Shown: positions 23,611 to 44,118 of the stretch, piece by piece
How the letters are laid out: each line of letters opens with the position of its first letter
Numbering within the stretch: position 1 is the first letter of the stretch
NCBI GenBank assembly: GCA_002783105.1
Contig: PFJN01000044.1
Coordinates: 1 to 44,118, forward strand
Length of the DNA stretch: 44,118 nt
Source: Candidatus Pacebacteria bacterium CG_4_10_14_3_um_filter_34_15
Lineage (GTDB): Bacteria; Patescibacteriota; Microgenomatia; UBA1400; PJMF01
Direction: 5' to 3'
Notes under the pieces: model-generated
Database searches by the model: none
What the model saw: only the letters and a program-made list of their open reading frames with translations
What the model was told of the DNA's origin: nothing
Made by a program: the position numbers and the translations under genes

Positions 23611-24756
23611 ATGAAAAAAATACTTGAGATTTTGGTCGTTTTTGCTCTTGGATTTTTTGCATCTGCACAAACAGGGAAGATTTATGCCGGTGATTGTTCA
23701 GGTTTTAATTTTGTGGGTGACGCTGGAGGTCCCTTTAGTGCAGGAGTTGCCTCTAATAAAATAGCTTTTAAACTTACTAATGTTAGCGATGACAATTATA
23801 AATTTCATTTTAGATCAGTATTGGACAATGGAGCAATTGTGATTAAAGTGATATCTAAATCCGGAATTGGTGGTGAACTCAATTTTTCAACTAACGACCC
23901 AGATCTTTTTCAAGTAGGAACCTGGAGTATTCAAGTCGTCAAACCTGGTACCATTTTCTTATGTGATTTAGATACCTATTTAGTAACTGGACCCTATTGC
24001 GGTCCAGTTTTTGCAAGTCAAACTGGTAGAGATGACTCTACCGCTGGTGGAGTTTGTTATTATAGTCCAGACGGTGGATGTATTGATTCCACTCATGACG
24101 TTCTAATTACCTCTACAGTCTACAGTTCAGATGGTAGCCCATATCCAGATAATATTATACAAAACTTAATACCAGGAGGAAGCAAGAATGGATCGTCACC
24201 AGATGGAATTCTTGAATCAAATTTTGGAGCTCTAGACGCGAAAAATTACAGTGTCAAAATACAGACTGGACTTATCACCGGTGTACTTTGTACCTATGAT
24301 TTTGAAGTTATGGGAAGCTGCGAAGGTGTAGAAGATCAATGTATGGAAGAGCCAGAACCGATATCTGAAGGTCCAGACGTATTTTCACTTTGTGACCAGA
24401 TTCCTAAAGAAAATGTCGAACAAAGAACCGCCTGTATGGATTGCACCGAAGGAACTGAAGAAGAAGAAGAAGACGCCGGAGTCTGGACAGCTATTGGGTG
24501 TATCAAAAGAGATCCTCAGATTATCATTAAAAAATTAATTACTGTAAGTCTTCAAGTTGGCGGAGGCTTTACACTCATAACTTTTTTAGTAGCTGGGTTT
24601 ATATTTAGCACATCCCAAGGAAGCCCAGAAAGAGTGAAAAGTGCCAAAGAAATGATGACTGCCTCTGTTATGGGTTTAATATTTGTTATATTTTCAGTTT
24701 CGGTACTTCAATTTATTGGATGGTCAGTATTGAAAATTCCAGGATTTGGAAGCTAA
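23611..24756 (+). CDS. Exported Cys-rich protein with C-terminal VirB2/TrbC-like pilin domain
   Basis: Signal peptide (..KIYA|GD), beta-rich Cys-containing region (12 Cys), VWTAIGCI, then TM-AGFIFSTSQGSPERVKSAKEMMTASVMGL-TM pilin hairpin. Confidence 0.8.
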   Translation: MKKILEILVVFALGFFASAQTGKIYAGDCSGFNFVGDAGGPFSAGVASNKIAFKLTNVSDDNYKFHFRSVLDNGAIVIKVISKSGIGGELNFSTNDPDLFQVGTWSIQVVKPGTIFLCDLDTYLVTGPYCGPVFASQTGRDDSTAGGVCYYSPDGGCIDSTHDVLITSTVYSSDGSPYPDNIIQNLIPGGSKNGSSPDGILESNFGALDAKNYSVKIQTGLITGVLCTYDFEVMGSCEGVEDQCMEEPEPISEGPDVFSLCDQIPKENVEQRTACMDCTEGTEEEEEDAGVWTAIGCIKRDPQIIIKKLITVSLQVGGGFTLITFLVAGFIFSTSQGSPERVKSAKEMMTASVMGLIFVIFSVSVLQFIGWSVLKIPGFGS

Positions 24757-24761
24757 ATAAA

Positions 24762-25160
24762 ATGAAAAAAAACGTTTACAAAATTATCTCCATTTTTATC
24801 ATTCTGCTTTTTGCGTTTTTTGTAACATCAAAAATAAATGCTCAAGAAGTAATAGAAGTAACTGCAGAAACGTTTGATGATCTAAATCCTCTTGTAATTG
24901 CTGGATCTCCTTTAGCCGGAGAATCCCCTGGTGGTCTTGTATCTAGGACGTTAAATTTTCTATTTCCACTTACTGGATTAATTCTATTTCTATTAATCAG
25001 TTGGGGCGGATTTGAAATACTTATTAGCTCTGCCGATCAAAAAGGTATGGAAGCAGGTAAAAATAGGGTAACTGCGGCTATCATTGGCTTTCTTCTTCTT
25101 TTCTCAACCTACTGGATGGCACAGATTGTTGAAATAATTTTTAGAATTAAAATACTCTAA
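24762..25160 (+). CDS. VirB2/TrbC-like pilin
   Basis: Signal peptide (..KINA|QE), TM-WGGFEILISSADQKGMEAGKNRVTAAIIGF-TM. Confidence 0.82.
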   Translation: MKKNVYKIISIFIILLFAFFVTSKINAQEVIEVTAETFDDLNPLVIAGSPLAGESPGGLVSRTLNFLFPLTGLILFLLISWGGFEILISSADQKGMEAGKNRVTAAIIGFLLLFSTYWMAQIVEIIFRIKIL

Positions 25161-25216
25161 AATTTGAGTTAAATAAAACAATTTGTTTCTTTTTTTTCTT
25201 AATAGGAAAATTAAAT

Positions 25217-25954
25217 CTACCCACCAAACCTTCTGTTCCTTAAATAAAATTCTTCTAAAACTTCATCTAGTTTTTTTGCTGTGAAATCTGGAAAATTAAA
25301 CTTTGGAAAAATGATTTCTGCATATTGATGTTGCCAAGACATAAATCCTGAAAGCCTAGTGTTATCCTCACCGGTTCTAACAATTACTTCTGGATCTGGC
25401 ATATAACTAGTATCCAAATTTTCTGAAATTAATTTTTCATCAATTTGTTCTGGCTTTAATTTTCCATCAGCAACTTTTTTAGCGATCTTTTGCATAGTTC
25501 GCTTGATTTCGTCTCGACCACCATAATTCATTGCCAAGGTAACTGTGAATTGTTTTCCAGTATTTTTTAAAACATTTTTTTTGGTTTTTTCAACACCTTT
25601 TTTAATTCTCTCCTGAATATCTTTCTCAAAACCATTAATGTCTCCAATCATTTTAACTCTTATTCCTTTTTTGCTCCATTCATCCAATCTTTCATCAAAA
25701 ACTTTTCTGAATAAATTCATTAAAAAATCAACTTCGATCTTTTCTCTTTTCCAATTTTCGGTGCTAAATATCCAAAACGTTAAATATTCCAAGCCTATTT
25801 CAATACTGCGATCTATTAAAGTTTCAAAAACTTCATTAACCGCTTTTTCGTGACCCATGAAAACTTTGAGACCTCTTTTTCTAGCCCAAGTTCTGTTGCC
25901 ATCACAAATGATAGCGACATGTTTTGGTGGAATATTTTTTTTCATTTTTAACAT
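25217..25954 (-). CDS. uppS: cis-prenyltransferase (undecaprenyl diphosphate synthase)
   Basis: HVAIICDGNRTWA, FSTENWKR, NYGGRDEI, RTGE..RLSGFMSWQ..YAE, RRFGG. Confidence 0.96.
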   Translation of the reverse strand: MLKMKKNIPPKHVAIICDGNRTWARKRGLKVFMGHEKAVNEVFETLIDRSIEIGLEYLTFWIFSTENWKREKIEVDFLMNLFRKVFDERLDEWSKKGIRVKMIGDINGFEKDIQERIKKGVEKTKKNVLKNTGKQFTVTLAMNYGGRDEIKRTMQKIAKKVADGKLKPEQIDEKLISENLDTSYMPDPEVIVRTGEDNTRLSGFMSWQHQYAEIIFPKFNFPDFTAKKLDEVLEEFYLRNRRFGG

Positions 25955-25987
25955 TTAATTAATTTATATTCGACTGTATTGAGTATA

Positions 25988-27001
25988 TTAAAACAAGTGA
26001 TCTTCTAAATATTCTGGTTTACCTCCAACTTTTGCAGTCAGTGTTTTTTTAACTAAGTCTAAACTATCCAATCTGTTTTGAACTTTTTCTTCAAACTCTG
26101 GCAATGTTAAAACATGAACATTAAAGCCAGTGTTGATTGTAAAATAGCACTCAATTCCTTCGGCTCTCATCTTTTGAACTTCATGAATAATTTGCAAAGT
26201 TCCTGGATACCACAAAACCATAGGTGGTTGGCTTGTTAATAAAATACTATGAAATTCTAGACACTCTGCTTCAATTAAAGATCCAAGCGAAGAAAAATCC
26301 TTCTTTTCTATAAATTTTTTTGTATCTTCAATTTTTTGTTTGATATTTTTTTGTCTAGCTTCGAAAAATATGCTTGATCCCGCTAATGTATGGCCTTCTG
26401 TTGATGAAATTTTTTTCTTTCCAAAATCAACAACAGCCACAATGTCTCTAATATCCCAATATTTTTGATCAAAGATTGTTTTTGAATACGAGGTTTCGGA
26501 AGTTTCTCCGTCAAGCCATTCTACAAATCCGCCTAAAGCACACCTGCAAGCGGTTCCAGACGCCTGTCGACTTAAAATACTTAATTCTTTTTCATTTAAA
26601 TCTAAACCAATAGCTTTGGTGGCGGCAAAAGTTAAAGCAGCCATTCCAGATCCAGAACTAGAAAGACCTGTACTTCTTGGAAATGAGTTTTCTGATACTA
26701 CTTTGGCAAATTGATTGGAGTTGGATATGTTTTGTTCTTTTGCTAAAGCTCTAATTTTATCTAAATGTTTAATCACTCTTTTTAATTCAATTGAAGTAGA
26801 ATCTATAATTTCTCCTTCTATGCTTAACTCATCTGCTGATAATTCTGGAATAAACTCAACTGTTGTAATCGTGTCTAGACCTTCTAACTTGATAGAAATA
26901 CTCCCATTTTCAGGAAGTCTTAGAATTTCATCTTTTTTGCCCCAATACTTTACTAAAGATATATCGCTTGATGCCTTGACGGTTGATTTGTTTAATTCCA
27001 T
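25988..27001 (-). CDS. mvaD: (Di)phosphomevalonate decarboxylase family protein with atypical active-site residues
   Basis: DISLVKYWGK, SISIKL, NSFPRSTGLSSSGSG, SGTACRC..GGFVEW, KKISSTEGH, YFTINTGFNVH; GAGG SD before ATG 27001. Confidence 0.9.
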   Translation of the reverse strand: MELNKSTVKASSDISLVKYWGKKDEILRLPENGSISIKLEGLDTITTVEFIPELSADELSIEGEIIDSTSIELKRVIKHLDKIRALAKEQNISNSNQFAKVVSENSFPRSTGLSSSGSGMAALTFAATKAIGLDLNEKELSILSRQASGTACRCALGGFVEWLDGETSETSYSKTIFDQKYWDIRDIVAVVDFGKKKISSTEGHTLAGSSIFFEARQKNIKQKIEDTKKFIEKKDFSSLGSLIEAECLEFHSILLTSQPPMVLWYPGTLQIIHEVQKMRAEGIECYFTINTGFNVHVLTLPEFEEKVQNRLDSLDLVKKTLTAKVGGKPEYLEDHLF

Positions 27002-27047
27002 AAAAATCCTCAACTTATTATACTAAAAACAGAGTGTGATATTTTAA

Positions 27048-28022
27048 TTATTTTTCAACCCGCACACCCTCAACATTTGTTTGTACTTTTATTACTTGAC
27101 CTCCAGAACGAGTTATTGCTTCCTCAACATCTACAACTTTATTAGTTGGAGTTAACGCAATCATACAATCTCCAATTCCAGCTCCTGACAACTTAGCTCC
27201 CCACGCTCCAGCGTCGCGCGCAGCATAAATCATTGCAGACAATTTTGCACTTCCGACACCCAATGCTTCCAGCATTCCTTGGTCAAAATTCATTAGCTCT
27301 CCAACAACCGGTAAAGTTTTTGCCATAAACGCAACCTTAGTGGCTTCAACCATTTTACCAATGTGCATATAGATTGAGTCTATCAAATCTGGGTGGCGAG
27401 ATGCTTTTTCTGCAACTGCCTGTATCAGAGTTACTGTATCTGCTTTTATGCCTGTGTAACCAACAACTAAAGGCAACTCCTTAATTTCTATTGGCTCTAT
27501 CACTTTTCCCCCAGTAACAAAATATAATGTACCCCCATAAATAGCAGCCGCAACATCAAATCCTGAACCTTTTCCCTGAATATCAAGAACTGTTTGATAT
27601 GCTAAATTAAAAATATCTTTATTTGATAGTTTAATATCAAATATAACAGCTAAACCCTTAATCACGCATACTGTTGATGCAGAAGAAGATCCAAATCCAA
27701 ACTGTGATGAAAATTCTGATTTAGTCTTTATTCGAATGCCTGAATTTATCTTATATTTTTCATTAAAATTTTTAACCGCCATCTCCACAAATTTTGCACC
27801 TTTTGAGATATCTCCCAAACCTAGGTCTGTTAATGATTTACTATAACCAGTTACTCCAACATCTTCAGCCTCAAGTTCAAGTCTTTTTTCAGATATTATC
27901 TCTAGCGTAACACTAAGTCTTTGTCCTACTGCTGTCACTATGCACGGACGATTGTAAACTACGGCATGTTCTCCAAGAAGCATAAGCTTTCCTGGTGCTG
28001 AAACAGTTACTTGTTTTTTCAT
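27048..28022 (-). CDS. GHMP kinase, most likely phosphomevalonate kinase
   Basis: APGKLMLLGEHAVVY, GFGSSSA, QGKGSGFDVAAAIYGG (ERG8/MvaK2-like), KLSGAGIGDC (GDC typical of phosphomevalonate kinases). Confidence 0.75.
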   Translation of the reverse strand: MKKQVTVSAPGKLMLLGEHAVVYNRPCIVTAVGQRLSVTLEIISEKRLELEAEDVGVTGYSKSLTDLGLGDISKGAKFVEMAVKNFNEKYKINSGIRIKTKSEFSSQFGFGSSSASTVCVIKGLAVIFDIKLSNKDIFNLAYQTVLDIQGKGSGFDVAAAIYGGTLYFVTGGKVIEPIEIKELPLVVGYTGIKADTVTLIQAVAEKASRHPDLIDSIYMHIGKMVEATKVAFMAKTLPVVGELMNFDQGMLEALGVGSAKLSAMIYAARDAGAWGAKLSGAGIGDCMIALTPTNKVVDVEEAITRSGGQVIKVQTNVEGVRVEK

Positions 28023-28065: not shown

Positions 28066-28857
28066 TTAACTAAGTTTTATTGCTTTGAGTACAACTAACG
28101 GGTAATCAATTTTTAAACCATCTGAATCTTGACGTATATTAAACACTTCTTTTATGTGATCTGGCGCATCTACTATCTTTTGATTTAATTTACCTAATTG
28201 TTCCTCTGTTACCTGTTTGCTTTTCTTCCATGCACTTGTATTAACATAGCTTACTGATCTACCAAAAACCTCTGTCTTAAAACCAGCCTTTTCTAATAAC
28301 TCAATCCATTCTGATTCTGATGGAATATTACATTTTCCTTCAGTTTGTGGATTTCTGCCACTAAGTTCTTGTTTTAAAGCATGTTGAGCATTTAGCCACT
28401 CACCCGTACCTTCTGGAGATATCATGTCTGCTACAATCAGACATCCGTTAGGTTTTAAAATTCTGAATAATCCTTCAATAACTTCTGGTTGAACATCAGC
28501 GGTTAAATCCTTAATACCAAAACGCACAACAACAACATCAAATGATTCATAAACAATAGGCAATGACTGAACCTCAGCAAGTATACGTAAATTTGACACT
28601 TCTGGTGATATTTTCGAAAGCTGAGAGCCTGCAAAATCTAAACAATAATAATTAGCAGGAGATTTGTTTACCAATTCACCTGTCAACTTCCCTGGACCAG
28701 ACATAAGATCTAATACCTTTGGGTCTTCTGATGTTTCATTTAATCCTGTAGCAAGGTAAATTATTTCTACAAATGATTTATCGCGATATATTGTAGGAGC
28801 TGCATCAAAAGTACGTTTATTATATGCTTCTTTCAGATTAAAATTTTCTTTTCTCAT
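28066..28857 (-). CDS. Class I SAM-dependent methyltransferase (UbiE-like fold)
   Basis: VLDLMSGPG (motif I), CLDF, SLP...SFDVVV, FRILKPNGCLIVAD, LLEKAGF. Confidence 0.9.
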   Translation of the reverse strand: MRKENFNLKEAYNKRTFDAAPTIYRDKSFVEIIYLATGLNETSEDPKVLDLMSGPGKLTGELVNKSPANYYCLDFAGSQLSKISPEVSNLRILAEVQSLPIVYESFDVVVVRFGIKDLTADVQPEVIEGLFRILKPNGCLIVADMISPEGTGEWLNAQHALKQELSGRNPQTEGKCNIPSESEWIELLEKAGFKTEVFGRSVSYVNTSAWKKSKQVTEEQLGKLNQKIVDAPDHIKEVFNIRQDSDGLKIDYPLVVLKAIKLS

Positions 28858-28882: not shown

Positions 28883-29779
28883 CTATTTTATTTCAATTTT
28901 GTAACTTTCTATAGTATTTTGACTTAAAAATTCTTTCAATCCATCTTTATTTGGATGATATGCCAAAATCCAACCAGAACCTTTTTTGACTCCACCCGCA
29001 CCTGTAATTTTTGCAAATCCTCCCTGATTTTCAATTTCTTTAATCATATTTTTTGCTTTCAAACTAACCACACCAAGTTTTTCTAATAATCTTTCGTTTT
29101 GAGTAAGTAAACATGGATCAAAATTTTTATCTTTAATACTCTCAATCATATTGAAAGTAACTCGGCCGATATCTTTAATTATTTTTGAATTATTTTTGTT
29201 TGATTCTACCTTTGTTTTTACAAGGCTTACCATTTCACCCGTACTTTCTTCAGGTTTTCCAGAATTAACTAAAATAAAGTCCATTTTAGAAAAACTTTTT
29301 AGCATCTTTCTTTTTCCTTTTCTAAATATTTGAACTCCCCCAAATACAACTGCAGAAGGATCAGTCCCACTTGAATTACCATGAATAAATTTTTCAGCCT
29401 GCCAAACTAAATTAAAAATTTCTTCTTCTGGTAAAATTAAATTGAAATGATTGAGCAAACATAAAAAAACCACATGTGCATATGCAGCTGAAGATCCCAG
29501 CCCAGATTTTCTAGGTAAATTCGAAGTTACTTTTATTTCCAAGTTATCTGTATTTAGATTTTTGCTTGAAAATTTTTCTTTAAAAATTTTAAAAATATGA
29601 TTCAAATATCCTGCCTTTGAATTTTTATTAACTTCTTTCGTTCTCTCTTCCACACTAGCCTTAATACCTAAGTTAATTGCAGATATTAAAGCAGGTTCTC
29701 CATAAACAACACTATGTTCTCCACTCAAAATAACTTTTCCAGATGAAAAAAAGATTTTGCTTTTTGAATTATTAATCAT
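28883..29779 (-). CDS. mvk: Mevalonate kinase
   Basis: GKVILSGEHSVVYG, SNLPRKSGLGSSAA, AEKFIHGNSSGTD, AKITGAGG. Confidence 0.88.
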   Translation of the reverse strand: MINNSKSKIFFSSGKVILSGEHSVVYGEPALISAINLGIKASVEERTKEVNKNSKAGYLNHIFKIFKEKFSSKNLNTDNLEIKVTSNLPRKSGLGSSAAYAHVVFLCLLNHFNLILPEEEIFNLVWQAEKFIHGNSSGTDPSAVVFGGVQIFRKGKRKMLKSFSKMDFILVNSGKPEESTGEMVSLVKTKVESNKNNSKIIKDIGRVTFNMIESIKDKNFDPCLLTQNERLLEKLGVVSLKAKNMIKEIENQGGFAKITGAGGVKKGSGWILAYHPNKDGLKEFLSQNTIESYKIEIK

Positions 29780-29788: not shown

Positions 29789-30085
29789 TTATTTTTTTAA
29801 TACCAACTTAATTCCATAATTTATCAGAGAAGAATTATTTGAATCACTCACTTTTCTAAAAACAAACTCTACCTTGTCACCTTTTTTAAGCTCAATACCT
29901 TTTTCACCCATAAATTCATATCTTTCACCGTCCATTTCGACAATTGCGAAACAATAAGGAAGAAAAGACTGCAACTCTGGAGATGTTACTTCTACTCTAG
30001 TCACAAAAACTACCTCTCCTAATTTTCCAACAAAATTATTCCAATTTTTATTTTTACGCCAATAGTTAGCAGGATTAAGTAGCAT
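29789..30085 (-). CDS. DUF35-family OB-fold protein (thiolase/HMG-CoA synthase scaffold) lacking the Zn ribbon
   Basis: PANYWR, GEVVFVTRV, PYCFAIVEMDG, GDKVEFVFRK, INYGIK; 1 bp downstream of the thiolase; no CxxC pairs. Confidence 0.85.
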   Translation of the reverse strand: MLLNPANYWRKNKNWNNFVGKLGEVVFVTRVEVTSPELQSFLPYCFAIVEMDGERYEFMGEKGIELKKGDKVEFVFRKVSDSNNSSLINYGIKLVLKK

Positions 30086-30086
30086 A

Positions 30087-31319
30087 TTATTTCTCCAAGA
30101 TATGAACTACTACTGTTGCTCCGCTTCCACCAACATTATGCGCAAGTGCATATTTAAAATTCATTATTTTTTTTGATCGGTCTGTTTTAACTTTAATTCC
30201 ATTCTCAAGTAACTCTGCTAAATATGCCACTTGTTTAACTCCAGTAGCACCGACAGGATGTCCGCACGCTTTTAATCCTCCAGAAGGATTAATTAAAACT
30301 TTTCCACCAAAGGTGGTTTGCCCATCAAGCGTTGCCTGACCGCCAGTGCCTTTTTTGAAAAATCCTAAATCCTCAATCGCTAAAATTTCTGCGATCGTAA
30401 AACAATCGTGAACTTCGGCGACCTCAATATCTTTTGAGGTTAGACCCGCTTGTTTAAAGGCATCTTTTGCTGCCTTAATTGTGGCATTAAGACTAGTTAA
30501 ACTTTTTCTATTAGCCAAACTTAAAAAATCTTGAGCATGACCCATGCCAATAATTTTTGGCTTATTTTTATAGTTGACTGTTTTACCATCCAATAATTTT
30601 CCCGAATCTTTTGTACTTAAAATCACCGCACTTGATCCATCTGAAACCGGTGAGCAATCGAGTAATCGTAAAGGATCTGCTACCATCGAACTCTGACTTA
30701 CTTGCTCCAAAGTAAATAATTTATTAAAATGGGCTTTAGAATTGGTTAATGCATGGGCATGATTTTTAACTGAGACTGCTGATAATTGTTCACGTGTAGT
30801 TCCATATTTATGCATATGAGCTTTAGCTAATAATGCATACAAAGCTGGAAAAGTGCTCCCATACTCAAAATTATAGTCAGAAGCCGATGATAAAACCTTA
30901 GTTGCTTCATTAGAATTAAAATCAGTCATTTTTTCTACACCTAGAACCATTACTGTTTTATATCTGCCAGAATTTAATGCATCTTGGGCTGTAATCATCG
31001 CCAAACTGCCAGAAGCGCAGGCTCCCTCTACTCTAATAGATGGAGGAAAATGTTCAAATAATTCACTCACAACTGCATTTAAATGCAACTGATTATTAAA
31101 TATTCCTGAAGCCATGTTGGCAATATAAACTGCCTCAATTTCTTTTGGATCAAAATCGCCATCCTTTGAAACATTCTTAAGAACTCCAAAAACTGCCTCT
31201 TTTATTAAATCATTAAGTGACTTATCCCAAAGCTCACCAAAATGATCGGAGATAAATGAGCCAACTATCTTTACCGATTTTATTTCTCTAACCGCGTTTT
31301 TATCAGTTTGTTTTTTCAT
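30087..31319 (-). CDS. Acetyl-CoA acetyltransferase (archaeal/SCP2-type thiolase)
   Basis: VEGACASGS (catalytic Cys), GVEKM, DCSPVSDG, EVHDCFT, GHPVGATG, HNVGG. Confidence 0.94.
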   Translation of the reverse strand: MKKQTDKNAVREIKSVKIVGSFISDHFGELWDKSLNDLIKEAVFGVLKNVSKDGDFDPKEIEAVYIANMASGIFNNQLHLNAVVSELFEHFPPSIRVEGACASGSLAMITAQDALNSGRYKTVMVLGVEKMTDFNSNEATKVLSSASDYNFEYGSTFPALYALLAKAHMHKYGTTREQLSAVSVKNHAHALTNSKAHFNKLFTLEQVSQSSMVADPLRLLDCSPVSDGSSAVILSTKDSGKLLDGKTVNYKNKPKIIGMGHAQDFLSLANRKSLTSLNATIKAAKDAFKQAGLTSKDIEVAEVHDCFTIAEILAIEDLGFFKKGTGGQATLDGQTTFGGKVLINPSGGLKACGHPVGATGVKQVAYLAELLENGIKVKTDRSKKIMNFKYALAHNVGGSGATVVVHILEK

Positions 31320-31351
31320 AATTTTATGTCCCAACTACCTTTATGTCCTAG

Positions 31352-32410: not shown

Positions 32411-32411
32411 G

Positions 32412-34685: not shown

Positions 34686-34858
34686 ATCAACTCCACCAAA
34701 ATTGTTGATAAAACAGATAATATTAATAATGTTTGCCAGGAATGTATCCCAATAAAAGAAGTAATTTCATCCAAAAATTCTGGAAAAATTCTTTCCTCAT
34801 TCAGTTTTTTTTGAGTTGTTGCTTCTTTTTGCAGTTCTTTTAAAAAATCATTTTTCAT
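34682..34858 (-). CDS. Small single-TM protein (58 aa), possible anti-sigma factor; absent from the ORF track
   Basis: Hand translation MKNDFLKELQKEATTQKKLNEERIFPEFLDEITSFIGIHSWQTLLILSVLSTILVELI*; fills the gap after the sigma factor; its TGA overlaps the next ATG. Confidence 0.8.
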   Translation of the reverse strand: MKNDFLKELQKEATTQKKLNEERIFPEFLDEITSFIGIHSWQTLLILSVLSTILVELI

Positions 34859-35393: not shown

Positions 35394-35415
35394 ATACTAT
35401 ATAATATCATTACAT

Positions 35416-35796: not shown

Positions 35797-35798
35797 TT

Positions 35799-36194
35799 AT
35801 GAAAAGTTTTCAATTGATTAAATCAGTATTTGCTCAAGGTGAATTTGATGCTCTTATTGGTGACGTAAGATCACCAGCTGGGGTAGGCACAATAAATATT
35901 GAATCTGGAGGCAGTGAAAATAGCATCGGTATACTTCTGCTTGTCTCAAGACTTTTAGGAATTGTAACTGTTATTGCCAGTGTTTGGGTTGCGGTAAACG
36001 TTATTTATGCCGCATACACATACTTGACTGGTGCAGGAAAACCTGCAAATCATCAAAAAGCAAGCGATATTTTAACAATGAGTATTATTGGCTTAATTCT
36101 CATTGTCAGTACTTATACGTTTGCTGGATTAATTGGATTGTTGTTTTTTGGAGATGCTGCGGCAATTATTAATCCGACAATTGCGCCAATTTAA
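35799..36194 (+). CDS. VirB2/TrbC-like pilin
   Basis: ATG 2 nt after the previous stop; leader MKSFQLIKSVFA|QG; TM-AAYTYLTGAGKPANHQKASDILTMSIIGL-TM. Confidence 0.82.
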   Translation: MKSFQLIKSVFAQGEFDALIGDVRSPAGVGTINIESGGSENSIGILLLVSRLLGIVTVIASVWVAVNVIYAAYTYLTGAGKPANHQKASDILTMSIIGLILIVSTYTFAGLIGLLFFGDAAAIINPTIAPI

Positions 36195-36204
36195 GAACAA
36201 AAAT

Positions 36205-36774
36205 ATGCTCAACTCAATTATTATAAAGAAAATACTAACTTTAGTTTCATTTTTAATTTTAGCCATTTCATTAATTTCATTTTCCAAAACCCAACCCGCT
36301 TTTGCTGGTGCACCATGCTCTAATGGAGGTTGCTATGACAATATAAAGTGCGTTTGGGTTGTGGATGATAGCCTCCCAGCTGGTGGATACTATACTACAG
36401 GTACAGAACCATGCGGATCGGCTGTGATAGGTGGAGTAGCACCTCCACCAGCTATCGCAAATATTAATAGAATTTCTGGAAATAGTGTAGATGGAAGTGG
36501 GCTTGGTGTACTTTTATTTTTTTCCAGAGCTCTTAATTTTGGAGCAATAGTTGGAGGAATTATTGTAGTTGGAAATTTTATTGGAGCAGGATTAATGTAT
36601 GTCACTGGGGCTGGAAATTCAGAAACTCATGTTAAAGTCATGAATAAAATTACCTATAGTGTTATAGGTATAATAATAATTGTTTCTACCTATACGATAG
36701 TCGGATTAATTGGTCTCATTTTCTTCAAGGACCCAGCATTCCTGCTCAAACCTAATTTATATGGAGTACGTTAG
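36205..36774 (+). CDS. VirB2/TrbC-like pilin with small Cys-rich N-terminal domain
   Basis: Signal peptide (..PAFA|GA), 4 Cys, TM-AGLMYVTGAGNSETHVKVMNKITYSVIGI-TM. Confidence 0.8.
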   Translation: MLNSIIIKKILTLVSFLILAISLISFSKTQPAFAGAPCSNGGCYDNIKCVWVVDDSLPAGGYYTTGTEPCGSAVIGGVAPPPAIANINRISGNSVDGSGLGVLLFFSRALNFGAIVGGIIVVGNFIGAGLMYVTGAGNSETHVKVMNKITYSVIGIIIIVSTYTIVGLIGLIFFKDPAFLLKPNLYGVR

Positions 36775-36814
36775 TATATAATAAATATTAGTTAATAAAA
36801 TAAGTTATAAAATT

Positions 36815-37198
36815 ATGTTTTTACCAACACTAATCGCACAATTTGGAGATGGAATTACCTCACCTTCCAAGGCATACACTGAAGGAGGAACTACCCGACC
36901 AGGAGTACTCGCTAACTTTGATTTGATTATTTCTAATTTGCTTGGTTTATTTACAATTATTGGTGCCTTAATATTTGTTGTCTACTTTTTAATTGCCGCT
37001 ATTCAATGGATAACAGCCGGTGGTGATGCCGGAAAGCTCACCGAAGCTAGAGAAAAGATTATTCAAGGAGTTCTTGGTTTAGTAATTTTAGTAGCTGCTT
37101 ATGGAATATTAGGATTAATTGGAACACTTGTTGGAATCGACATCCTAAACCCAGTAACTCAACTAGAAGAAATAATCCCAAAGATAGGACCATATTAA
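36815..37198 (+). CDS. VirB2/TrbC-like pilin
   Basis: TM-AAIQWITAGGDAGKLTEAREKIIQGVLGL-TM. Confidence 0.87.
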   Translation: MFLPTLIAQFGDGITSPSKAYTEGGTTRPGVLANFDLIISNLLGLFTIIGALIFVVYFLIAAIQWITAGGDAGKLTEAREKIIQGVLGLVILVAAYGILGLIGTLVGIDILNPVTQLEEIIPKIGPY

Positions 37199-38013
37199 TG
37201 AAAATTTTAAAATCCTTTTTATTAGGTGTGACAAGCTTTCTAAGCTTTATGACAGTTTTTATGATAACCAAAGTTTCTGCATTTAATAATCCAGTTATAA
37301 ATGGAGATCTAGGTGGAAATGGCGCTGGAGGCGTTGACGCCGCTACAAGTGGAGCAACTTTTGTAAGCTATTTTGTGTCGCTATGGCAAGCTTTTATTGT
37401 CATTGGCGCTGTTATGGTCCTAATTTATTTTCTCTGGGGATCTATTGAATGGATTACAGCTGGCGCCGATACGGCCATAGTTGAAAAAGCCAGAAATAGA
37501 ATTACTCAAGCAATGATTGGTTTATTCGTTCTAATTGGCTCATTTGTGATTATTGAGTTTGTTAGTCACCTTTTCTTTGGAGACGAATTCTCAATCCTAA
37601 ATCTTGAATTTATTGCCCCTGCTCCTGCAGAAGAAGCAAGTCTTGAAAAATTCGATTTCTTCGCACCTCCGGTTGCATATGCGGTTGAATTAAACATTGG
37701 TGATACTGCAGCCGGTCGAAATCTTCCGGGAACAGCTGACTATAATTCAGCCGATGGAGAAGCTGGATTTGGAAAACTTTTGAGCAAAGTTTTAAATATT
37801 GTTCTGGTTATAGGAGCACTAATTGTTTTCATGTACTTAATTTGGGGTGGAGTTGAATGGATCACAGCTGGAGGTGATGCTACTAAAACTGAGGCTGCTC
37901 GAAATAAAATTACTCAGTCAATGATAGGACTGATTGTTTTAGCAGCTACAGTTGCTTTATTTATAATGATCCAGAATTTCCTCGATCTTGAAATTCTAAC
38001 CTTTACTTTCTGA
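37198..38013 (+). CDS. Tandem double-pilin protein (two VirB2/TrbC-like domains)
   Basis: Two units: WGSIEWITAGADTAIVEKARNRITQAMIGL and WGGVEWITAGGDATKTEAARNKITQSMIGL, joined by a linker containing PPVAYA|VE. Confidence 0.87.
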   Translation: MKILKSFLLGVTSFLSFMTVFMITKVSAFNNPVINGDLGGNGAGGVDAATSGATFVSYFVSLWQAFIVIGAVMVLIYFLWGSIEWITAGADTAIVEKARNRITQAMIGLFVLIGSFVIIEFVSHLFFGDEFSILNLEFIAPAPAEEASLEKFDFFAPPVAYAVELNIGDTAAGRNLPGTADYNSADGEAGFGKLLSKVLNIVLVIGALIVFMYLIWGGVEWITAGGDATKTEAARNKITQSMIGLIVLAATVALFIMIQNFLDLEILTFTF

Positions 38014-38045
38014 GCCTAAAAACTATTAATAAAAAATAAATAAAC

Positions 38046-38075
38046 TTGACTATTTTTCCCAAAAGCAGGTATAAT
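38046..38075 (+). promoter_or_regulatory. Sigma-70 promoter TTGACT-18-TATAAT for the 38123 pilin
   Basis: -35 at 38046-38051, -10 at 38070-38075; AAGGAG SD at 38114-38119. Confidence 0.75.
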
Positions 38076-38122
38076 TAGTCATTCAGCTAAAAAACTGATA
38101 TATAAAAGTAATTAAGGAGACT

Positions 38123-38491
38123 ATGAAAAAAAGAATAAACAGCCTAGCCGTAACAGCAGTTGCTTTAGTAGCATCAAGTAGCAAGGCATTGGCAATAACA
38201 AAAATTGAGACCCCAAAAGCCTTCTTTACTGATATAGGCTCATTAATTACCAAAGCATTAGATTTTGTTTTGATTCTTGGCGCCCTACTTGTTTTCATGT
38301 ACCTTATTTGGGGTGGCATTGAATGGATCACATCGGGTGGAGATAAAGGAAAGACAGAATCTGCACGTAATAAAATTACTGCTGCTATCGTTGGACTGAT
38401 TGTTCTCGCATCAGCATGGGCAATCCTATTGCTAGTCCTAGGATTCTTAGACACAAACTTAGATGAATTATTCTCAAATGCTGGAGTCTAA
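38123..38491 (+). CDS. VirB2/TrbC-like pilin, probable major subunit
   Basis: Signal peptide (..KALA|IT), minimal pilin WGGIEWITSGGDKGKTESARNKITAAIVGL; own promoter, SD and terminator. Confidence 0.9.
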   Translation: MKKRINSLAVTAVALVASSSKALAITKIETPKAFFTDIGSLITKALDFVLILGALLVFMYLIWGGIEWITSGGDKGKTESARNKITAAIVGLIVLASAWAILLLVLGFLDTNLDELFSNAGV

Positions 38492-38514
38492 TTTGAAATC
38501 TTAATTTAGAATTT

Positions 38515-38539
38515 AAACCCCCGCTCGAGCGGGGGTTTT
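38515..38539 (+). terminator. Rho-independent terminator
   Basis: AAACCCCCGC-TCGA-GCGGGGGTTTT: GC-rich stem plus T run, 23 nt after the pilin stop. Confidence 0.9.
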
Positions 38540-38573
38540 CTGATATAATTAATATACTCATTCAAAATATTCT

Positions 38574-39038
38574 ATGAAAAATCTAAAAAAAGAAAATATA
38601 GCTCAACAAAGAATCAAGTTTCTAAAAAGACATATTTTGTTAATTTTTTTAGTTCTTATCAGCAATCTCTATACTGCCTCTCCAGTCTTTGCCCAAACAA
38701 CTACTTGGACCGGAGTATGTGTTTCGGGAATTGGTGACGATCCAACAACTCATGATGTGGCAACTATCCAGGGATTAGAATGTTTGATTGCAAACATATT
38801 TACTGTCATTATTACCCTTATTGGTCTTATAGCATTTGTGATGCTTATTGTTGGATCAGTTTTATGGTTAGTATCTGGCGGTAGTGCTGAAGGCACTAAA
38901 AAGGCTCGTGACACTTTGACCTATGCCGTACTTGGAATTGTTGTTGCCTTGAGTGCATTTATAGTTTTGAACCTAATTTCAGGATTTACTGGTGTTGAAG
39001 ATATTAAGCAATTTATAATCCCTACCTCAAACTCATAA
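38574..39038 (+). CDS. VirB2/TrbC-like pilin
   Basis: Signal peptide (..PVFA|QT), C...VATIQGLECL, TM-GSVLWLVSGGSAEGTKKARDTLTYAVLGI-TM; TGaTATAAT at 38541-38549. Confidence 0.86.
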   Translation: MKNLKKENIAQQRIKFLKRHILLIFLVLISNLYTASPVFAQTTTWTGVCVSGIGDDPTTHDVATIQGLECLIANIFTVIITLIGLIAFVMLIVGSVLWLVSGGSAEGTKKARDTLTYAVLGIVVALSAFIVLNLISGFTGVEDIKQFIIPTSNS

Positions 39039-39044: not shown

Positions 39045-41789
39045 TTGTATAATAAATTTGTGCCAAAACAGTTTATTGTCTCATTAATCTTTTTTACTTT
39101 TAGTTTAGTATTTTTACCATATTTTAATTTTGTTTATGCAACAGAAGAAGCAAGTGGTGGTAAATTTAATGAAAGTAGTCAATTCAATATTGAACAATAT
39201 AGAACATACAACACCAAGGGTTATCCAGATTTTGATGACAAGTTCTATATCACCCCAATAAAAAATATTATCCAAGGGAATGGTCCCAGCGAACCCACTG
39301 TAGAAGGAGAATATAAAGATATAAGACTAGAACTAGCTATGACTGGTTATGAAACTTATTGTATGGCTGAAAATGTAGAGATTAATCCGCAATATAATAC
39401 GGAAAAATTAATAGATTTATTTTTATATTATAATCCTCAAGGAATTAATCTTCATGCCTTCTCAACAGAAGTTCTTGGTATGAAAAATGCCAATTATCCT
39501 ATTTGGAGAGATTTAGATGGTAGACAATTTTTAATGAATTCTCTTGAGGAATATTTTGGATTTAAAGATGTCTATGAAAAAGATCCTGCCAAATCAGAAG
39601 TGAACTCGGCGGCTATCAATTCTCTTCTCTCTCAAGAACAAGCATGTGTCCAGGGTTGGATAACTTTAGGAGCGGAAAGAAGAGCATGCAACAGATTGCA
39701 AGATATATCCACCTGTCAACTTACAAAAAGAATGATTCCTGGAGGCGGATTTGAAGTTCATGACATTATGGGCATGTTGAGTGATTTTACCGGGGGAGGT
39801 TGGGCCGGTGGCGATGCCCAAAAAGGTGAGGAACTAGCAATAAAGTGGTGTAATATCTTATTTTCTGAACCACCCGATCCGAATGACTCTGAATTAAACA
39901 CTGTTCAAAAAGCCTTAGTAAAACCAATCAAAGAAACGATCATAAATGTTCCTACATATAGAGATAAGGGTTATAGAATTGGATTTATAGTTGCGGCCAT
40001 GGAAACCAGGCAACCATTCGAACCTGCAAGCAATCCAGAAGAAGCTACGCAAATTTTTAATTTTTTCACACCAAAAACAGAAGACAAAGAATGGGATGAA
40101 GTATTAGTGGCAGCATTCAAACTTCCTGATATAGGAACAAATAAAGGACCTGGATCGTTATTTGGCCAAGAAAAATGGGACGATCCTCTAGATTTAACTA
40201 GATTGGTTTTAACTACTGATGAAGCTCACAAAACACAAGAAGGCTTGGGACATTCAGAAAGAGAAGCTGCTTTAAATGGAGCCATTGCCGCACAAGAACA
40301 AACCCCTGAAAGTAGAATTTATTGCTATGACGGTATATTTCCTGGAGGCAATGGTACAAATTCATGCCTTCTTCCCCTACCAAAGGCTCTAACTGATTTT
40401 ATTAATTCCAAAAGAGTTGATTGTGAAAATGATGCCGAAGCTGCAAAAGAAATTAGTGATTTAGCAGGCTTAAGAGATGCAAGTGACACTTATGGTAAAT
40501 TATTTACCAAAGCTAATGGAGGTCAAGTACTCGTAAATTTATTTTTGGGTTCTCCATATAATGCAGGAGGAGCTAGTCCAGATCTTGCTACATTAAGCAA
40601 TATTGAAACTATCTGGACTATCAGAGAACCAATCTGGAGGCCACAGGTTAATAATAGTTTAGTCCATTTTTATTTGGTTTATCCAGTTGGCTATGAATTA
40701 GAAACTGTAGAAGAAGCAATTAAAGGAACTTTTTTTACACAAGCTCAAATTGCTCAGATGAATGAAGATAAAAGCATTATTAACAATTTTGAGGTCACTG
40801 GACAAACTCAAGCTCTTGATGGCGGAAAAGTTAGTTGGAAATTTGAAGATACAGATTGGATTATAAATAATCCTGGAGATTGTGGTTATGAAAAGGATGA
40901 ATTTGGAGAAGTCATCATACCTAAAGTCCCAATAATCTGTAAAGAGCGTCCAAGCATTGGAATAAAACAAGATGGTGGCAAAATTGATATCTTGGGTTCA
41001 AGACTCAGTTGGTGGCTCAGAAAAGTCCAAGTTGCCTTAAGTTCCAAATTCAGTATAGCCAGTAAGTATTATGGAGCTTGCAAAACAATGGAGGAATTTC
41101 TCCTTGGAAGATGTATTGTAATCGACTCAGTCGGAGGAGACGTAGATCCAGAAACAGTGGCGGCCGTAGCACAGTGTAATGAAGTTACTCCTGGAGCATG
41201 TGATGGAATTACTTCTGGAGAAACCGCTGTGCATGTGCCTGCTCCAGGAACATGTCCAGATCCTACCGTAACTCCAAATATGTACGTTCCAGCACTTCAC
41301 GAAATACCAGCGTGGTTTGATCCAAACGATCCTGCTCCAGTTTGCAATGATGACTTTTATTCTTATATTGCTTGTACATATCCAAATACCCTAGTGGCTA
41401 ATCCAGTTAATGAGGAGGGAGTATTTGTGGCCAGTTCAAACATGACCGCGTGCGAATTTGTTGTGAACAAAGCAAAAGAACTAGGCTTTAGTCCTAGATT
41501 TGCCCTATCAATGTGGGCCGAGGAAACAGGTATGAGCCACATAAGAACTTCTAAAGGAGCTTTTGGAATAACTCCAACAGTTGCAGAGCCATTCCATCTT
41601 GGACAGCAAATGGACGCCCTTTATGGAACAATGTGGCATTGGAAAGATTCATATCAAAACTTTTTGGAAAAATATTCTGATGAAGAATTAAATTCTAATA
41701 AATTTTGCACAAATCCATTTTTCCCTGCCAGACTCTTCACCTATTATTGGTACTTGCATCCAAATAGTTTTGAGCCTTGCAACAATTAG
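39045..41789 (+). CDS. Large exported Cys-rich protein with possible C-terminal lysozyme-like domain
   Basis: 914-aa ORF (start TTG 39045 or GTG 39060), signal peptide (..FVYA|TE), ~20 Cys, C-terminal KAKELGFSPRFALSMWAEETG...GAFG. Confidence 0.8.
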   Translation: MYNKFVPKQFIVSLIFFTFSLVFLPYFNFVYATEEASGGKFNESSQFNIEQYRTYNTKGYPDFDDKFYITPIKNIIQGNGPSEPTVEGEYKDIRLELAMTGYETYCMAENVEINPQYNTEKLIDLFLYYNPQGINLHAFSTEVLGMKNANYPIWRDLDGRQFLMNSLEEYFGFKDVYEKDPAKSEVNSAAINSLLSQEQACVQGWITLGAERRACNRLQDISTCQLTKRMIPGGGFEVHDIMGMLSDFTGGGWAGGDAQKGEELAIKWCNILFSEPPDPNDSELNTVQKALVKPIKETIINVPTYRDKGYRIGFIVAAMETRQPFEPASNPEEATQIFNFFTPKTEDKEWDEVLVAAFKLPDIGTNKGPGSLFGQEKWDDPLDLTRLVLTTDEAHKTQEGLGHSEREAALNGAIAAQEQTPESRIYCYDGIFPGGNGTNSCLLPLPKALTDFINSKRVDCENDAEAAKEISDLAGLRDASDTYGKLFTKANGGQVLVNLFLGSPYNAGGASPDLATLSNIETIWTIREPIWRPQVNNSLVHFYLVYPVGYELETVEEAIKGTFFTQAQIAQMNEDKSIINNFEVTGQTQALDGGKVSWKFEDTDWIINNPGDCGYEKDEFGEVIIPKVPIICKERPSIGIKQDGGKIDILGSRLSWWLRKVQVALSSKFSIASKYYGACKTMEEFLLGRCIVIDSVGGDVDPETVAAVAQCNEVTPGACDGITSGETAVHVPAPGTCPDPTVTPNMYVPALHEIPAWFDPNDPAPVCNDDFYSYIACTYPNTLVANPVNEEGVFVASSNMTACEFVVNKAKELGFSPRFALSMWAEETGMSHIRTSKGAFGITPTVAEPFHLGQQMDALYGTMWHWKDSYQNFLEKYSDEELNSNKFCTNPFFPARLFTYYWYLHPNSFEPCNN

Positions 41790-42709: not shown

Positions 42710-42768
42710 TAAGTGTCTTTCTACATCATTTGTGTATGATTTATTACTATACTCGAATAATCAAATTT

Positions 42769-42777
42769 TGCTATAAT
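42769..42777 (+). promoter_or_regulatory. Extended -10 (TGcTATAAT), leaderless-type
   Basis: Box ends 7 nt before the ATG at 42785; no SD. Confidence 0.6.
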
Positions 42778-42784
42778 TAATTGT

Positions 42785-44118
42785 ATGAGTAAAAAAGTAT
42801 TACTTTTTTTGGTTTTGTTATTTGGTATTTTCTCCATTAATGTGAATGGTGTTTATGCTCAAGAAACAGAAGAGCCTCCTGCAACAGAAGAACCTTTAGA
42901 AAAAGCTAAGCCTTGGGGACCAACATATGACCAAGATCAAATAGATAACTACAGAGATGCAATAAAAATGGATAATTGTGCGACCCCATCTTTAGAATGT
43001 CTAGTTCATCAAACCTCAAGATTTGTAGCCATCGAATGGGTCAATAGTATCATATATCCAGGTTCAACAGGCATAGCAGATGCAGGATCAAAAGATTCCA
43101 AAGTTGCAACACAGCAAGGTGGTTTTGTTAACGGAATTACTTATCTAATTGGAGAAATGTATCGTTATCCAGCTGCAAGAACTTCTATTTATGTTGCCGA
43201 TGTACTTCAAAATGCTCATATTATCACCCCAGCCTACGCCCAAGGACTTGGGTTCGCATCTTTAAATCCGGTCTTAGACTTGTGGAAAATTTTTAGAAAC
43301 GTTTCTTACATGTTATTTATCATGATTTTTATAGTACTTGGATTCATGATAATGTTTAGACAAAAAATTGGCGGACAATCTGCAGTAACTGCTCAACAAG
43401 CTATTCCTAGTGTCATTGCAAGCTTAATCTTTGTAACTTTTTCATATGCAATTGCCGGTTTTCTAATAGATATGATGTACCTTCTAATGTTTATGATTAT
43501 TGGCATATTTGAACAAACAACTCCAGATATAAGTGGCAAAATCATGGATTTTGATATTTTAGAATTAATGGGACAATTAAATTCGAAAGTCGGAGTAACC
43601 ACTGGCGGATTTCAGAGTATTGATATTGTTAAAAATCTTATGGGATCAATGGTAGAAAGTGAAAAATTGGGAGAAACATTAGGAGTTGTTGGTGGCGTTA
43701 CTTTGTCACTCGTCTTGGCTGTGGCGATTTTGATTGGAACATTTAAATTATTTTTTGAATTATTAAAATCATACGCCATTGTTGTTTTATATGTTGTCAC
43801 TGCACCATTAATATTACTTGGGGGAGCTTTCCCTGGAAAAAATGTCTTCGGGCCTTGGATTAAAAATATAATTGCAAATCTGTCTGCTTTTCCAACAGTA
43901 TTGATGACAGTAATCTTATTTTATCAATTTACAAAAGAAGCTCCAACAACTGGTGGTTTTATCCCACCGTTTTTATTAGGAAGAGGCCAAGCCGACGCAA
44001 TCACCACTCTGATGGGTTTGGCAATTATTTTGGCATTGCCAGAAATCGTTAAAGATGTAAAGAAAAACCTGGGTGCTACTGAGGGATTTGGAACGATGGT
44101 ATTCAATGCGGCTGGTGC
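42785..44118 (+). CDS. VirB6/TrbL-like polytopic membrane protein (3' truncated by the window edge; absent from the ORF track)
   Basis: Hand translation MSKKVLLFLVLLFGIFSINVNGVYA|QE...PAYAQGLGFASLNPVLDLWKIFRNVSYMLF...GFMIMFRQKIGGQSAVTAQQAIPSVIASLIFVTFSYAIAGFLID...; further TMs follow and no stop was seen before the window end. Confidence 0.78.
   Translation, partial: MSKKVLLFLVLLFGIFSINVNGVYAQETEEPPATEEPLEKAKPWGPTYDQDQIDNYRDAIKMDNCATPSLECLVHQTSRFVAIEWVNSIIYPGSTGIADAGSKDSKVATQQGGFVNGITYLIGEMYRYPAARTSIYVADVLQNAHIITPAYAQGLGFASLNPVLDLWKIFRNVSYMLFIMIFIVLGFMIMFRQKIGGQSAVTAQQAIPSVIASLIFVTFSYAIAGFLIDMMYLLMFMIIGIFEQTTPDISGKIMDFDILELMGQLNSKVGVTTGGFQSIDIVKNLMGSMVESEKLGETLGVVGGVTLSLVLAVAILIGTFKLFFELLKSYAIVVLYVVTAPLILLGGAFPGKNVFGPWIKNIIANLSAFPTVLMTVILFYQFTKEAPTTGGFIPPFLLGRGQADAITTLMGLAIILALPEIVKDVKKNLGATEGFGTMVFNAAG

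Follow-up and report, generated by a model that had tools for sequence, protein, structure and literature searches.

A putative SigM-like sigma factor module for isoprenoid supply inside a split pilin array of a Microgenomatia bacterium

The stretch of DNA analysed here, called the window, is one whole contig of 44,118 nucleotides (PFJN01000044.1) from the 1.0-Mb genome (99% complete, 34% G+C) of Candidatus Pacebacteria bacterium CG_4_10_14_3_um_filter_34_15 (GCA_002783105.1), an ultra-small groundwater bacterium of the class Microgenomatia and the order UBA1400 within the Candidate Phyla Radiation (CPR). It contains an operon for isoprenoid precursors that is headed by a sigma factor of the extracytoplasmic function (ECF) type and lies between two groups of VirB2-like pilin genes. 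The explanation that we prefer, with a probability of about 0.6, is that a SigM-like ECF sigma/anti-sigma module governs isoprenoid supply and stands beside the pilin arrays by old synteny. The Microgenomates mevalonate cluster and the VirB2-like arrays have been published before; new are the position of UppS within the pilin array across the class, the module of a sigma factor and two membrane proteins heading the isoprenoid genes, and a promoter-like motif specific for these genes. The literature searched yielded no paper in which a sigma factor is connected with the pilin arrays and with UppS or mevalonate genes in CPR bacteria. To our knowledge, almost nothing is known about regulation in these organisms. 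A 1-Mb genome that appears to devote its single alternative sigma factor to isoprenoid precursors and the cell-wall lipid carrier suggests lipid-carrier supply as a controlled bottleneck in CPR envelope biology.

Fourteen minus-strand genes lie between the pilin groups, and all of them overlap or are separated by gaps of at most 43 bp. From head to end, the operon is composed as follows:

34875..35393, minus strand: ECF-type sigma factor, 172 aa (Pfam Sigma70_r2 and Sigma70_r4_2; TIGR02937 59.1 bits, cut-off 42.9)
34682..34858, minus strand: candidate anti-sigma factor of 58 aa that has a helix at the N-terminus and a membrane helix at the C-terminus (conserved homologue in relatives)
34341..34685, minus strand: 114-aa multi-pass membrane protein, candidate second anti-sigma factor or sensor subunit (alignment)
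33649..34344, minus strand: type 1 isopentenyl diphosphate (IPP) isomerase, IDI, with Nudix fold (NF002995 126.7 bits, cut-off 127; Pfam NUDIX)
32412..33659, minus strand: HMG-CoA reductase, HMGR (PF00368 326 bits)
31352..32434, minus strand: HMG-CoA synthase-like condensing enzyme, HMGS (Pfam ACP_syn_III_C, HMG_CoA_synt_C)
30087..31334, minus strand: thiolase (Pfam Thiolase_C_1, Thiolase_N)
29789..30085, minus strand: 98-aa OB-fold-like protein (weak PF01796 match, E 0.04; orthologue 0.019)
28883..29779, minus strand: second GHMP kinase, MVK/PMK-like (TIGR00549 159 bits, slightly under the cut-off of 163)
28066..28857, minus strand: UbiE-like SAM methyltransferase, an insertion specific to the window (Pfam methyltransferase families)
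27048..28022, minus strand: GHMP kinase of the mevalonate-kinase type, MVK or PMK (TIGR00549 206 bits, cut-off 163)
25988..27013, minus strand: diphosphomevalonate decarboxylase, MVD (PF22700 160 bits; PF18376)
25217..25954, minus strand: UppS, a cis-prenyltransferase and the last gene of the operon (PF01255 218 bits)

The original prediction, an earlier reading of the same contig, had described a sigma-led minus-strand operon that runs through the mevalonate genes to uppS, pilin genes on both sides of it (23611-25160 and 35416-39038), and a divergent, head-to-head arrangement of the sigma gene and the first right-hand pilin gene at a distance of 22 bp. This architecture is confirmed by the domain matches listed here, by PF18895 matches of the pilins and by the positions of the two ATGs (35393 and 35416). 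The mevalonate set is complete in the window (thiolase, HMGS, HMGR, two GHMP kinases, MVD and IDI) and represents the sole IPP route found in the genome, in which a search revealed no IspH, no DXS and one marginal DXR-like stretch of 21.6 bits. The same enzyme set, namely thiolase, HMGS, class I HMGR, two GHMP kinases, decarboxylase and type 1 IDI, was described for CPR clusters by Hoshino and Gaucher 2018 (PMC6107057). The cluster descriptions in that paper make no mention of a sigma module, a promoter motif, an operon-end UppS or pilin flanks, and compared with these clusters the window carries an additional methyltransferase gene.

The sigma factor consists of regions 2 and 4 only, without region 1.1 or 3 (Pfam), compared with regions 1.1, 1.2, 2, 3 and 4 in the primary sigma factor of a relative, and it reaches no equivalog model. 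Two genes of the sigma-70 family are present in the genome, coding for the primary sigma factor and for the ECF-type factor of the window. The neighbourhood was surveyed at two levels. In the order, the 40 nearest genomes were analyzed together with that of the window (41 in total) and 36 loci were fetched around these genes; their open reading frames (ORFs), taken as longest frames with some over-extended 5' starts, were labelled by BLAST against the window proteins and by a pilin profile built from the window. In the class, UppS was searched in 121 sampled genomes, a tally that includes one unpublished genome (G103, used for this count only), and 40 UppS-centred loci of 20 kb were inspected, 35 from other orders and 5 from this order. 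The surveyed genomes are kin, and the counts overstate their independence. A sigma homologue was found in 35/41 genomes. The original prediction had proposed to look in relatives for a linkage of mevalonate operon, ECF factor and pilins. Isoprenoid genes, sigma and pilins are linked across the order: an isoprenoid gene lies within 5 kb of sigma in 30 of the 31 sigma-centred loci, and sigma is divergent from a pilin gene at most two genes away in 28 of them.

The two small genes behind sigma are conserved as well. A homologue of the 58-aa protein directly follows sigma in 23 of the 24 loci from which such an ORF was extracted, and the 114-aa protein, recognizable by the motifs GLxLHPYQTMQ and YWQxxLxYLxxRF, comes after the small ORF in 25/31 order loci. 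In the window, a 16-bp gap separates sigma from the 58-aa gene, which overlaps the 114-aa gene by 4 bp. A relaxed Pfam search with the 58-aa protein gave nothing usable. For the 114-aa protein, a Pfam Yip1 match was obtained in 1 of 21 members, and the ESM Atlas returned only CPR hypotheticals, with Yip1 at 0.77. The predicted complex of sigma and the 58-aa protein scored 0.26 in both runs relative to a mark of 0.32, with controls not folded.

An ECF sigma factor and two integral membrane proteins in one operon are also found in the SigM-YhdL-YhdK system of Bacillus subtilis. According to the account in PMC11081497, the sigM-yhdL-yhdK operon senses undecaprenyl phosphate, and in the SigM model a membrane complex frees the sigma factor when the carrier pool drops. 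The likeness of the 58-aa and 114-aa window proteins, which match no anti-sigma family, to YhdL and YhdK is one of gene order and presumed function only. The presumed regulon differs too: in the window and its relatives it would comprise precursor synthesis, that is genes of the mevalonate or methylerythritol phosphate (MEP) pathway, isopentenyl phosphate kinase (IPK) and UppS, whereas SigM acts on peptidoglycan synthesis and carrier recycling. Another known case is the CarQ-CarR pair of Myxococcus xanthus, in which a membrane anti-sigma factor holds an ECF sigma factor that turns on carotenoid, and hence isoprenoid, genes; in systems of this type, light turns on the pigment genes. In contrast to CarQ-CarR, the sigma factor of the window would act on the core precursor pathway and the synthase of the cell-wall carrier, and it is the one alternative sigma factor of its organism.

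A promoter-like motif is present in front of isoprenoid genes:

33667..33694, minus strand: GCATGATTT-N12-ACGACTA, that is GCATGA-N16-CGACTA (sequence and position weight matrix, PWM)

The window copy is contained in the 3' end of the IDI frame, with 7 nt between it and the HMGR ATG. The motif, written as GCRTGATTT-N12-(C/G)CGACTA, was found upstream of isoprenoid genes that are not directly behind another gene. A regular expression for it yielded 18 matches in 2.07 Mb of fetched loci. An isoprenoid gene was called within 260 nt downstream of 12 of these, and 2 further matches fall inside over-extended 5' ends of IPK and kinase calls. The genes behind the matches are HMGR (5), the second kinase (2), Nudix/IDI (5, partly at longer distance), IPK (1) and UppS (1). 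The PWM gave 32 matches in the fetched loci versus 5.0 in shuffles, 16 of them outside the training set, and added HMGR in three more genus members as well as sites right after the 114-aa protein in further families. A pilin follows none of the 18 regular-expression matches and one weak match among the 32 of the PWM. When the PWM was run over the whole genome, the window site, itself a member of the training set, scored 31.4 bits and the next best site 12.5.

The exact pattern occurs 23 times in the 41 whole genomes versus 6 times for a backwards control, with one to three matches per genome, and about 20 of the 23 reside in isoprenoid clusters. Among the sites that do not belong to the discovery loci are those before HMGR in the relatives G001 and G007. 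In G018 and G023 the upper mevalonate operon is located 10 kb away or on another contig and has kept the motif. No HMGR match was obtained in G015, which is alone among the relatives in having a true DXS. Its two unlinked sites precede IspD (163 bits) by 10 nt and DXS (262 bits) by 7 nt. Because of these sites in relatives, the motif is taken to mark isoprenoid-precursor genes of either pathway, wherever they are located, and such a distribution is what one expects of a regulon under a trans-acting factor. Both boxes are unlike the housekeeping consensus, and the promoter-like motif would be of a non-sigma-70 type. Such a short and specific signature, which in some relatives precedes mevalonate genes and in another MEP genes, defines a testable putative regulon of one sigma factor and one to three promoters per genome in organisms not yet grown alone.

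Directly behind the motif and before the Nudix gene, an ORF of about 70-100 aa is often seen (L042, L048, L050, L041 and other loci). In one of the class-level loci, the equivalent place is occupied by a gene for a 76-aa protein with a match to the DUF35-type zinc ribbon.

The ECF sigma factor is proposed to read the motif because it is the sole alternative sigma factor of the genome and is tied to isoprenoid genes, not only in the order (30/31 loci) but also in 15/40 class loci. One could instead imagine that the motif is no promoter, being an operator site for a conventional DNA-binding regulator or another kind of element, and that sigma serves a different regulon and owes its position to synteny only. 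We regard this as unlikely. The missing ECF signature and the missing autoregulatory copy, both detailed below, would speak in its favour, whereas the fixed 16-nt spacer and the second box, which ends 7-11 nt before the starts as the leaderless -10 boxes do here, look like a promoter. Moreover, HMGR overlaps IDI, and a start at this place therefore needs its own promoter, for which only one alternative sigma factor is available.

Several observations weigh against a SigM-like module. The motif does not carry the canonical ECF signature of AAC in the -35 and CGT in the -10 box, and no canonical AAC-N16-19-CGT near sigma is conserved in the 47 loci searched. No copy of the motif was found upstream of sigma, so that the autoregulatory promoter usual for ECF factors, and present in the SigM system, was not seen in the window module. 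The exact pattern was matched in 18/41 genomes, all of them from the family of the window or from two others. The motif was found by eye upstream of isoprenoid genes, which makes the regular-expression and PWM counts partly circular; the exact pattern in the 41 genomes and the G015 sites are the less circular evidence. From its geometry, its position and the lack of any other alternative sigma factor we infer that the ECF sigma factor rather than a DNA-binding regulator reads it. Searches of Pfam and NCBIfam, and for the 114-aa protein also of the ESM Atlas, placed neither of the two membrane proteins in a known anti-sigma family. The persistence of UppS beside pilins through at least three different local rearrangements could reflect an unexplained selection. 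Finally, the sequencing runs that contain this DNA comprise 24 DNA runs from groundwater and aquifer and no RNA run.

According to the proposed SigM-like scheme, the locus would combine two distinct systems, side by side since an early point in the history of the class of Microgenomates-type CPR bacteria. A leaderless promoter of the housekeeping type would transcribe sigma, the 58-aa gene, the 114-aa gene and IDI, and a second promoter, GCATGA-N16-CGACTA, would drive HMGR through UppS. The ECF sigma factor may recognize this second promoter, and the two membrane proteins may restrain it until the polyprenyl-phosphate pool or envelope signals indicate need, following the logic of SigM-YhdL-YhdK. 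The pilin arrays, a large exported protein and a VirB6-like protein would form part of a type IV secretion system (T4SS) and depend on leaderless promoters of the sigma-70 type. Adjacency of the two systems would be inherited synteny with at most a basal coupling through the shared 22-bp region, and a supply line of prenyl lipid to the pilus would not be part of it.

The second system is made up of plus-strand genes with PF18895 (T4SS_pilin) domains, two on the left (23584-25160) and seven on the right (35416-39038) of the operon:

23584..24756, plus strand: 390-aa protein with a Cys-rich ectodomain of about 300 aa fused to a pilin domain (residues about 315-377), likely start at 23611 (PF18895 E 9e-5; 27.6 bits genome-wide)
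24720..25160, plus strand: second left-hand VirB2-like pilin (PF18895 29.0 bits, cut-off 26.6)
35416..39038, plus strand: seven VirB2-like pilin genes (PF18895)
35394..35415, between divergent genes: 22-bp control region with overlapping TATAAT (35400-35405, plus strand) and TATTAT (35406-35401, minus strand)

All nine genes match PF18895 at E 2.5e-4 or better, and five of them exceed the cut-off of 26.6 bits in a Pfam scan of the window; a genome-wide search gave eight places above it. One of the seven right-hand genes has two pilin domains, which brings this array to eight, and one pilin gene also matches PF04956 (TrbC, E 0.002). The contig harbours 10 of the 12 PF18895 matches of the genome. 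Arrays of 2-11 divergent PF18895 and PF04956 paralogues have been described especially for Microgenomatia, and the patescibacterial VirB2-like arrays are reported to lie on the chromosome, where VirB4 and VirB6-like genes are found at other places in the vicinity (Quinonero-Coronel 2025, PMC12102498; review PMC12857230). A split two-plus-seven array with UppS in the gap is absent from the main text of PMC12102498, which contains no isoprenoid, undecaprenyl, mevalonate or sigma and leaves the array contexts to its supplements.

Both pilin arrays and the sigma gene appear to use leaderless promoters of the housekeeping, sigma-70 type. Upstream of the right array, TATAAT is positioned 11-17 nt before the first ATG in most genus members and many other genomes, and four families display TTGACA-N17-TAnAnT 6-7 nt before the ATG. 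The left array is preceded by a genus-conserved CTGGCA-N18-TACAAT and in other families by TGnTAnAnT 7-8 nt before the ATG, and the sigma gene by TGnTAnAAT 6-9 nt before the ATG in many genomes. Across the genome, TAnAnT at -15 to -12 of first genes reaches 5-8% per position versus about 2%. Leaderless mRNAs thus seem common in the group. Many promoters in the fetched loci are situated 6-8 nt from the ATG. A generic promoter and terminator scan was uninformative (55 promoter-like sites versus 59.8 expected).

In form, the 22-bp region between sigma and the first right-hand pilin could be a pseudo-symmetric bidirectional promoter. Promoters of this kind are known in bacteria from the examples given in PMC12825309 and PMC10268837, and the window resembles them in that opposite-strand -10 boxes overlap between divergent starts 22 bp apart. 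The exact overlapping form is not conserved across the genus; in other members, unlike in the window, sigma starts 46-98 bp away and has its own -10 box.

These promoters bear on the possibility that the locus is one regulon, in which the ECF sigma factor controls the isoprenoid genes and the flanking pilins alike, through promoters that were not recognized or through the shared divergent region. The overlapping boxes of the window are compatible with such a control, and so is the divergent position of sigma within two genes of a pilin in the order, a pairing that survives where the isoprenoid genes have moved away (G018, G020, G024, G050, G155). Yet the pilin promoters fit the housekeeping consensus including a TTGACA -35 box, the isoprenoid motif was not found before pilins with the exception of the one weak PWM site, and many class loci contain pilin arrays and UppS without any sigma gene in the locus. 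A common regulon is consequently improbable, and the co-regulation of isoprenoid supply and filament production suggested by the original prediction is not supported.

The comparison of loci revealed an order-wide layout. From left to right, it consists of a gene for a SpoIID-domain protein, two pilins, UppS, the isoprenoid genes, the 114-aa protein, the small protein and sigma, followed by six to seven pilins, a large exported protein and the VirB6-like protein. Pilins are present on both sides in 20/31 sigma-centred loci, and several of the others stop at contig ends. HMGR occurs in 17 of the 40 nearest genomes (18/41 overall) and pilins in 41/41. A pilin match on the same contig lies within 13 kb of HMGR in at least 15 of the 17 HMGR genomes, a lower bound given that 150 of the 392 pilin matches in the 41 genomes were listed. 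Independently of the mevalonate genes, the two-plus-seven split with UppS in between is found in 17 families of this order and, elsewhere in the class, in many more. In genomes without HMGR, the same slot holds a Nudix protein, a second Nudix-like protein, an amino-acid-kinase-family protein (isopentenyl phosphate kinase family) and UppS, and in three families a polyprenyl synthase gene separates sigma from the pilins.

At class level, UppS was found in 105/121 genomes. Pilins are located within 10 kb in 22 of the 40 UppS loci, UppS adjoins a pilin in 15 and has pilins on both sides in 13, and the cargo between the pilin groups is almost exclusively isoprenoid genes, with or without the sigma module. 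The position of UppS varies between the 3' end or 5' end of the two-gene group and the 3' end of the seven-gene group. In other classes, no UppS locus (0/38) had pilins nearby with the window-built profile, which may lose sensitivity outside the class; a separate PF18895 check agrees, as the arrays in closed or nearly closed genomes of other classes are at least 97 kb from UppS (5/5). Within the class, all 16 genomes without a UppS match carry pilin arrays, which are contiguous where listed. The UppS-in-pilin-array arrangement is a class-specific, old synteny.

This distribution leaves hardly any room for a chance insertion, in which a mobile mevalonate operon would recently have split a contiguous pilin array. 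The patchy occurrence of HMGR in 18/41 relatives and the contiguous arrays of UppS-less genomes and other classes would be in line with such an event. It is rejected by the conservation of the layout across order (28/31) and class (22/40), regardless of mevalonate genes, and base composition across the window shows no island.

A direct biochemical coupling, by contrast, has a number of observations on its side and is nevertheless rather improbable. In this case, polyprenyl phosphate from the operon would be the structural lipid of the filament, a carrier for pilin glycosylation or the source of a prenyl modification of pilins, and selection would keep the genes together. Conjugative pili are said, since the work of Costa in 2016, to be polymers of pilin and phospholipid. 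The adjacency of UppS and pilins (15/40 class loci, with UppS between pilin groups in 13/40) outlasts several different rearrangements, and the nearly pure isoprenoid cargo between the groups, with or without the sigma module, points in the same direction. On the other side, pilin arrays persist in all 16 class genomes without a UppS match, the two are apart in other classes (0/38 loci; at least 97 kb in 5/5), and HMGR is present in 18/41 relatives compared with pilins in 41/41. Furthermore, no oligosaccharyltransferase or protein-acting prenyltransferase was seen in the locus, and the pilin promoters are unlike the isoprenoid promoter. Pilus lipid, glycosylation and prenylation, the roles offered by the original prediction, are disfavoured by these findings; its alternative of a chance insertion falls with the conservation of the layout. 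Contiguous arrays with isoprenoid genes elsewhere, which it had named as a contrary outcome, exist outside the class and were not encountered inside the order.

A still bolder version would link the polyprenyl-phosphate pathway of Microgenomates-type CPR bacteria to the VirB2-like filament both physically and in function, with the UppS product as pilus lipid or pilin-modification carrier and the ECF module tuning supply to filament demand; it is more doubtful again. If true, such a tie would explain why UppS stays wedged between the pilin groups through rearrangements. The pilus-lipid idea is alive but unlikely, and the class-wide placement of UppS in the array provides a clean, unexplained synteny marker.

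Synteny alone is also weak evidence for coupling, since a conserved block past SpoIID holds unrelated housekeeping genes. It encodes a bPH_2 membrane protein, DUF5657, an unknown protein of 600-650 aa, SmpB and a ComF-like protein, and a ligase-Fic-kinase block also recurs beside the layout. Because unrelated genes are included in the conserved block, long frozen synteny is considered normal in the class. The bPH_2-to-ComF-like block adjoins SpoIID in many families (L081, L094, L074) and is not adjacent to it in the window.

Two cases of possible mis-binning were noted on the way. Contig C70 of the same genome (4887 bp) contains a second UppS, two pilin genes, a Nudix gene, a partial GHMP kinase gene and a Fic gene. 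It was considered as a second locus of the genome and set aside as probably mis-binned: it has the layout of another family, its Fic is 68% identical to that family's copy and its G+C content is 37.7% versus 34.3% for the genome. C70 shows the UppS-pilin adjacency independently. The relative G035 has two sigma-pilin loci (L036, L050), one with upper mevalonate genes and the other with the lower pathway and UppS; the upper-mevalonate contig of 6.5 kb resembles the layout of another family and may be mis-binned.

The remaining genes around the arrays are the following:

21582..23432, minus strand: SpoIID-domain exported protein with coiled-coil N-terminus, conserved left neighbour (Pfam SpoIID 50.4 bits)
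39045..41789, plus strand: 914-aa exported protein without family (position conserved)
42785..44116, plus strand: multi-pass membrane protein, VirB6/TrbL-like as a lead only, truncated by the contig end (ESM Atlas)

The SpoIID gene is divergent from the pilin gene in 31 fetched loci, and a protein of about 800-1000 aa comes after the array in most relatives. The 914-aa protein found no Pfam or PDB sequence match, and relaxed Pfam searches with it in three pieces, or with the 307-aa minus-strand protein at 41786-42709, gave nothing usable. The original prediction had placed a large exported protein and a VirB6-like gene downstream of the array; the former is present, and the latter is limited to an ESM Atlas lead. 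Clusters hit by a full-length homologue are automatically named TrbL/VirB6 at 0.96, with template modelling (TM) scores of 0.45/0.62 and 0.40/0.58 to TrbL clusters. Pfam and NCBIfam were searched without a match, and a profile of 12 homologues found nothing in PDB sequences. A DUF87/TrwB-type (VirB4/DUF87) ATPase is encoded at 3773-6106 on the minus strand, 30 kb from the pilin array, and a second gene of the VirB4/DUF87 type is present on contig C54 of the genome.

A structure model of the sixth right-hand pilin gene (38123-38491) with a pLDDT of 83 displays a signal helix and a two-helix hairpin (helices at residues 5-17, 38-70 and 75-108). Foldseek of this model against the PDB retrieved nothing at E 0.001 or better, only generic helical hairpins, and PDB sequence searches with the pilins were blank or gave chance-level matches. 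Homologues of the first left-hand pilin, which have a Cys-rich extracellular part before the pilin domain, range from 127 to 471 aa.

Within the operon, the 98-aa protein probably is a DUF35-type partner of thiolase and HMGS, and its slot between thiolase and kinase is conserved in relatives. No homologue of the methyltransferase between the two GHMP kinase genes was labelled in the 36 order-level loci. A trans-polyprenyl diphosphate synthase (PF00348) was found neither in the genome nor in 8 other genomes of the genus, and is present in 10/24 family genomes and 22/41 overall. The UppS of the genus, which also has IDI and a full mevalonate pathway, might be primed directly by dimethylallyl diphosphate (DMAPP) or by scavenged farnesyl diphosphate. 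Many relatives (L038, L039, L042, L044, L047-L049) have neither HMGR nor a true DXS and keep the Nudix, Nudix-like and isopentenyl-phosphate-kinase-family proteins and UppS behind the sigma module; it looks as if they salvage precursors from a host rather than synthesise them. In the genus member G003 (L023), a kinase-family protein, a Tag glycosylase and an unknown 253-aa protein replace the two GHMP kinases and the decarboxylase.

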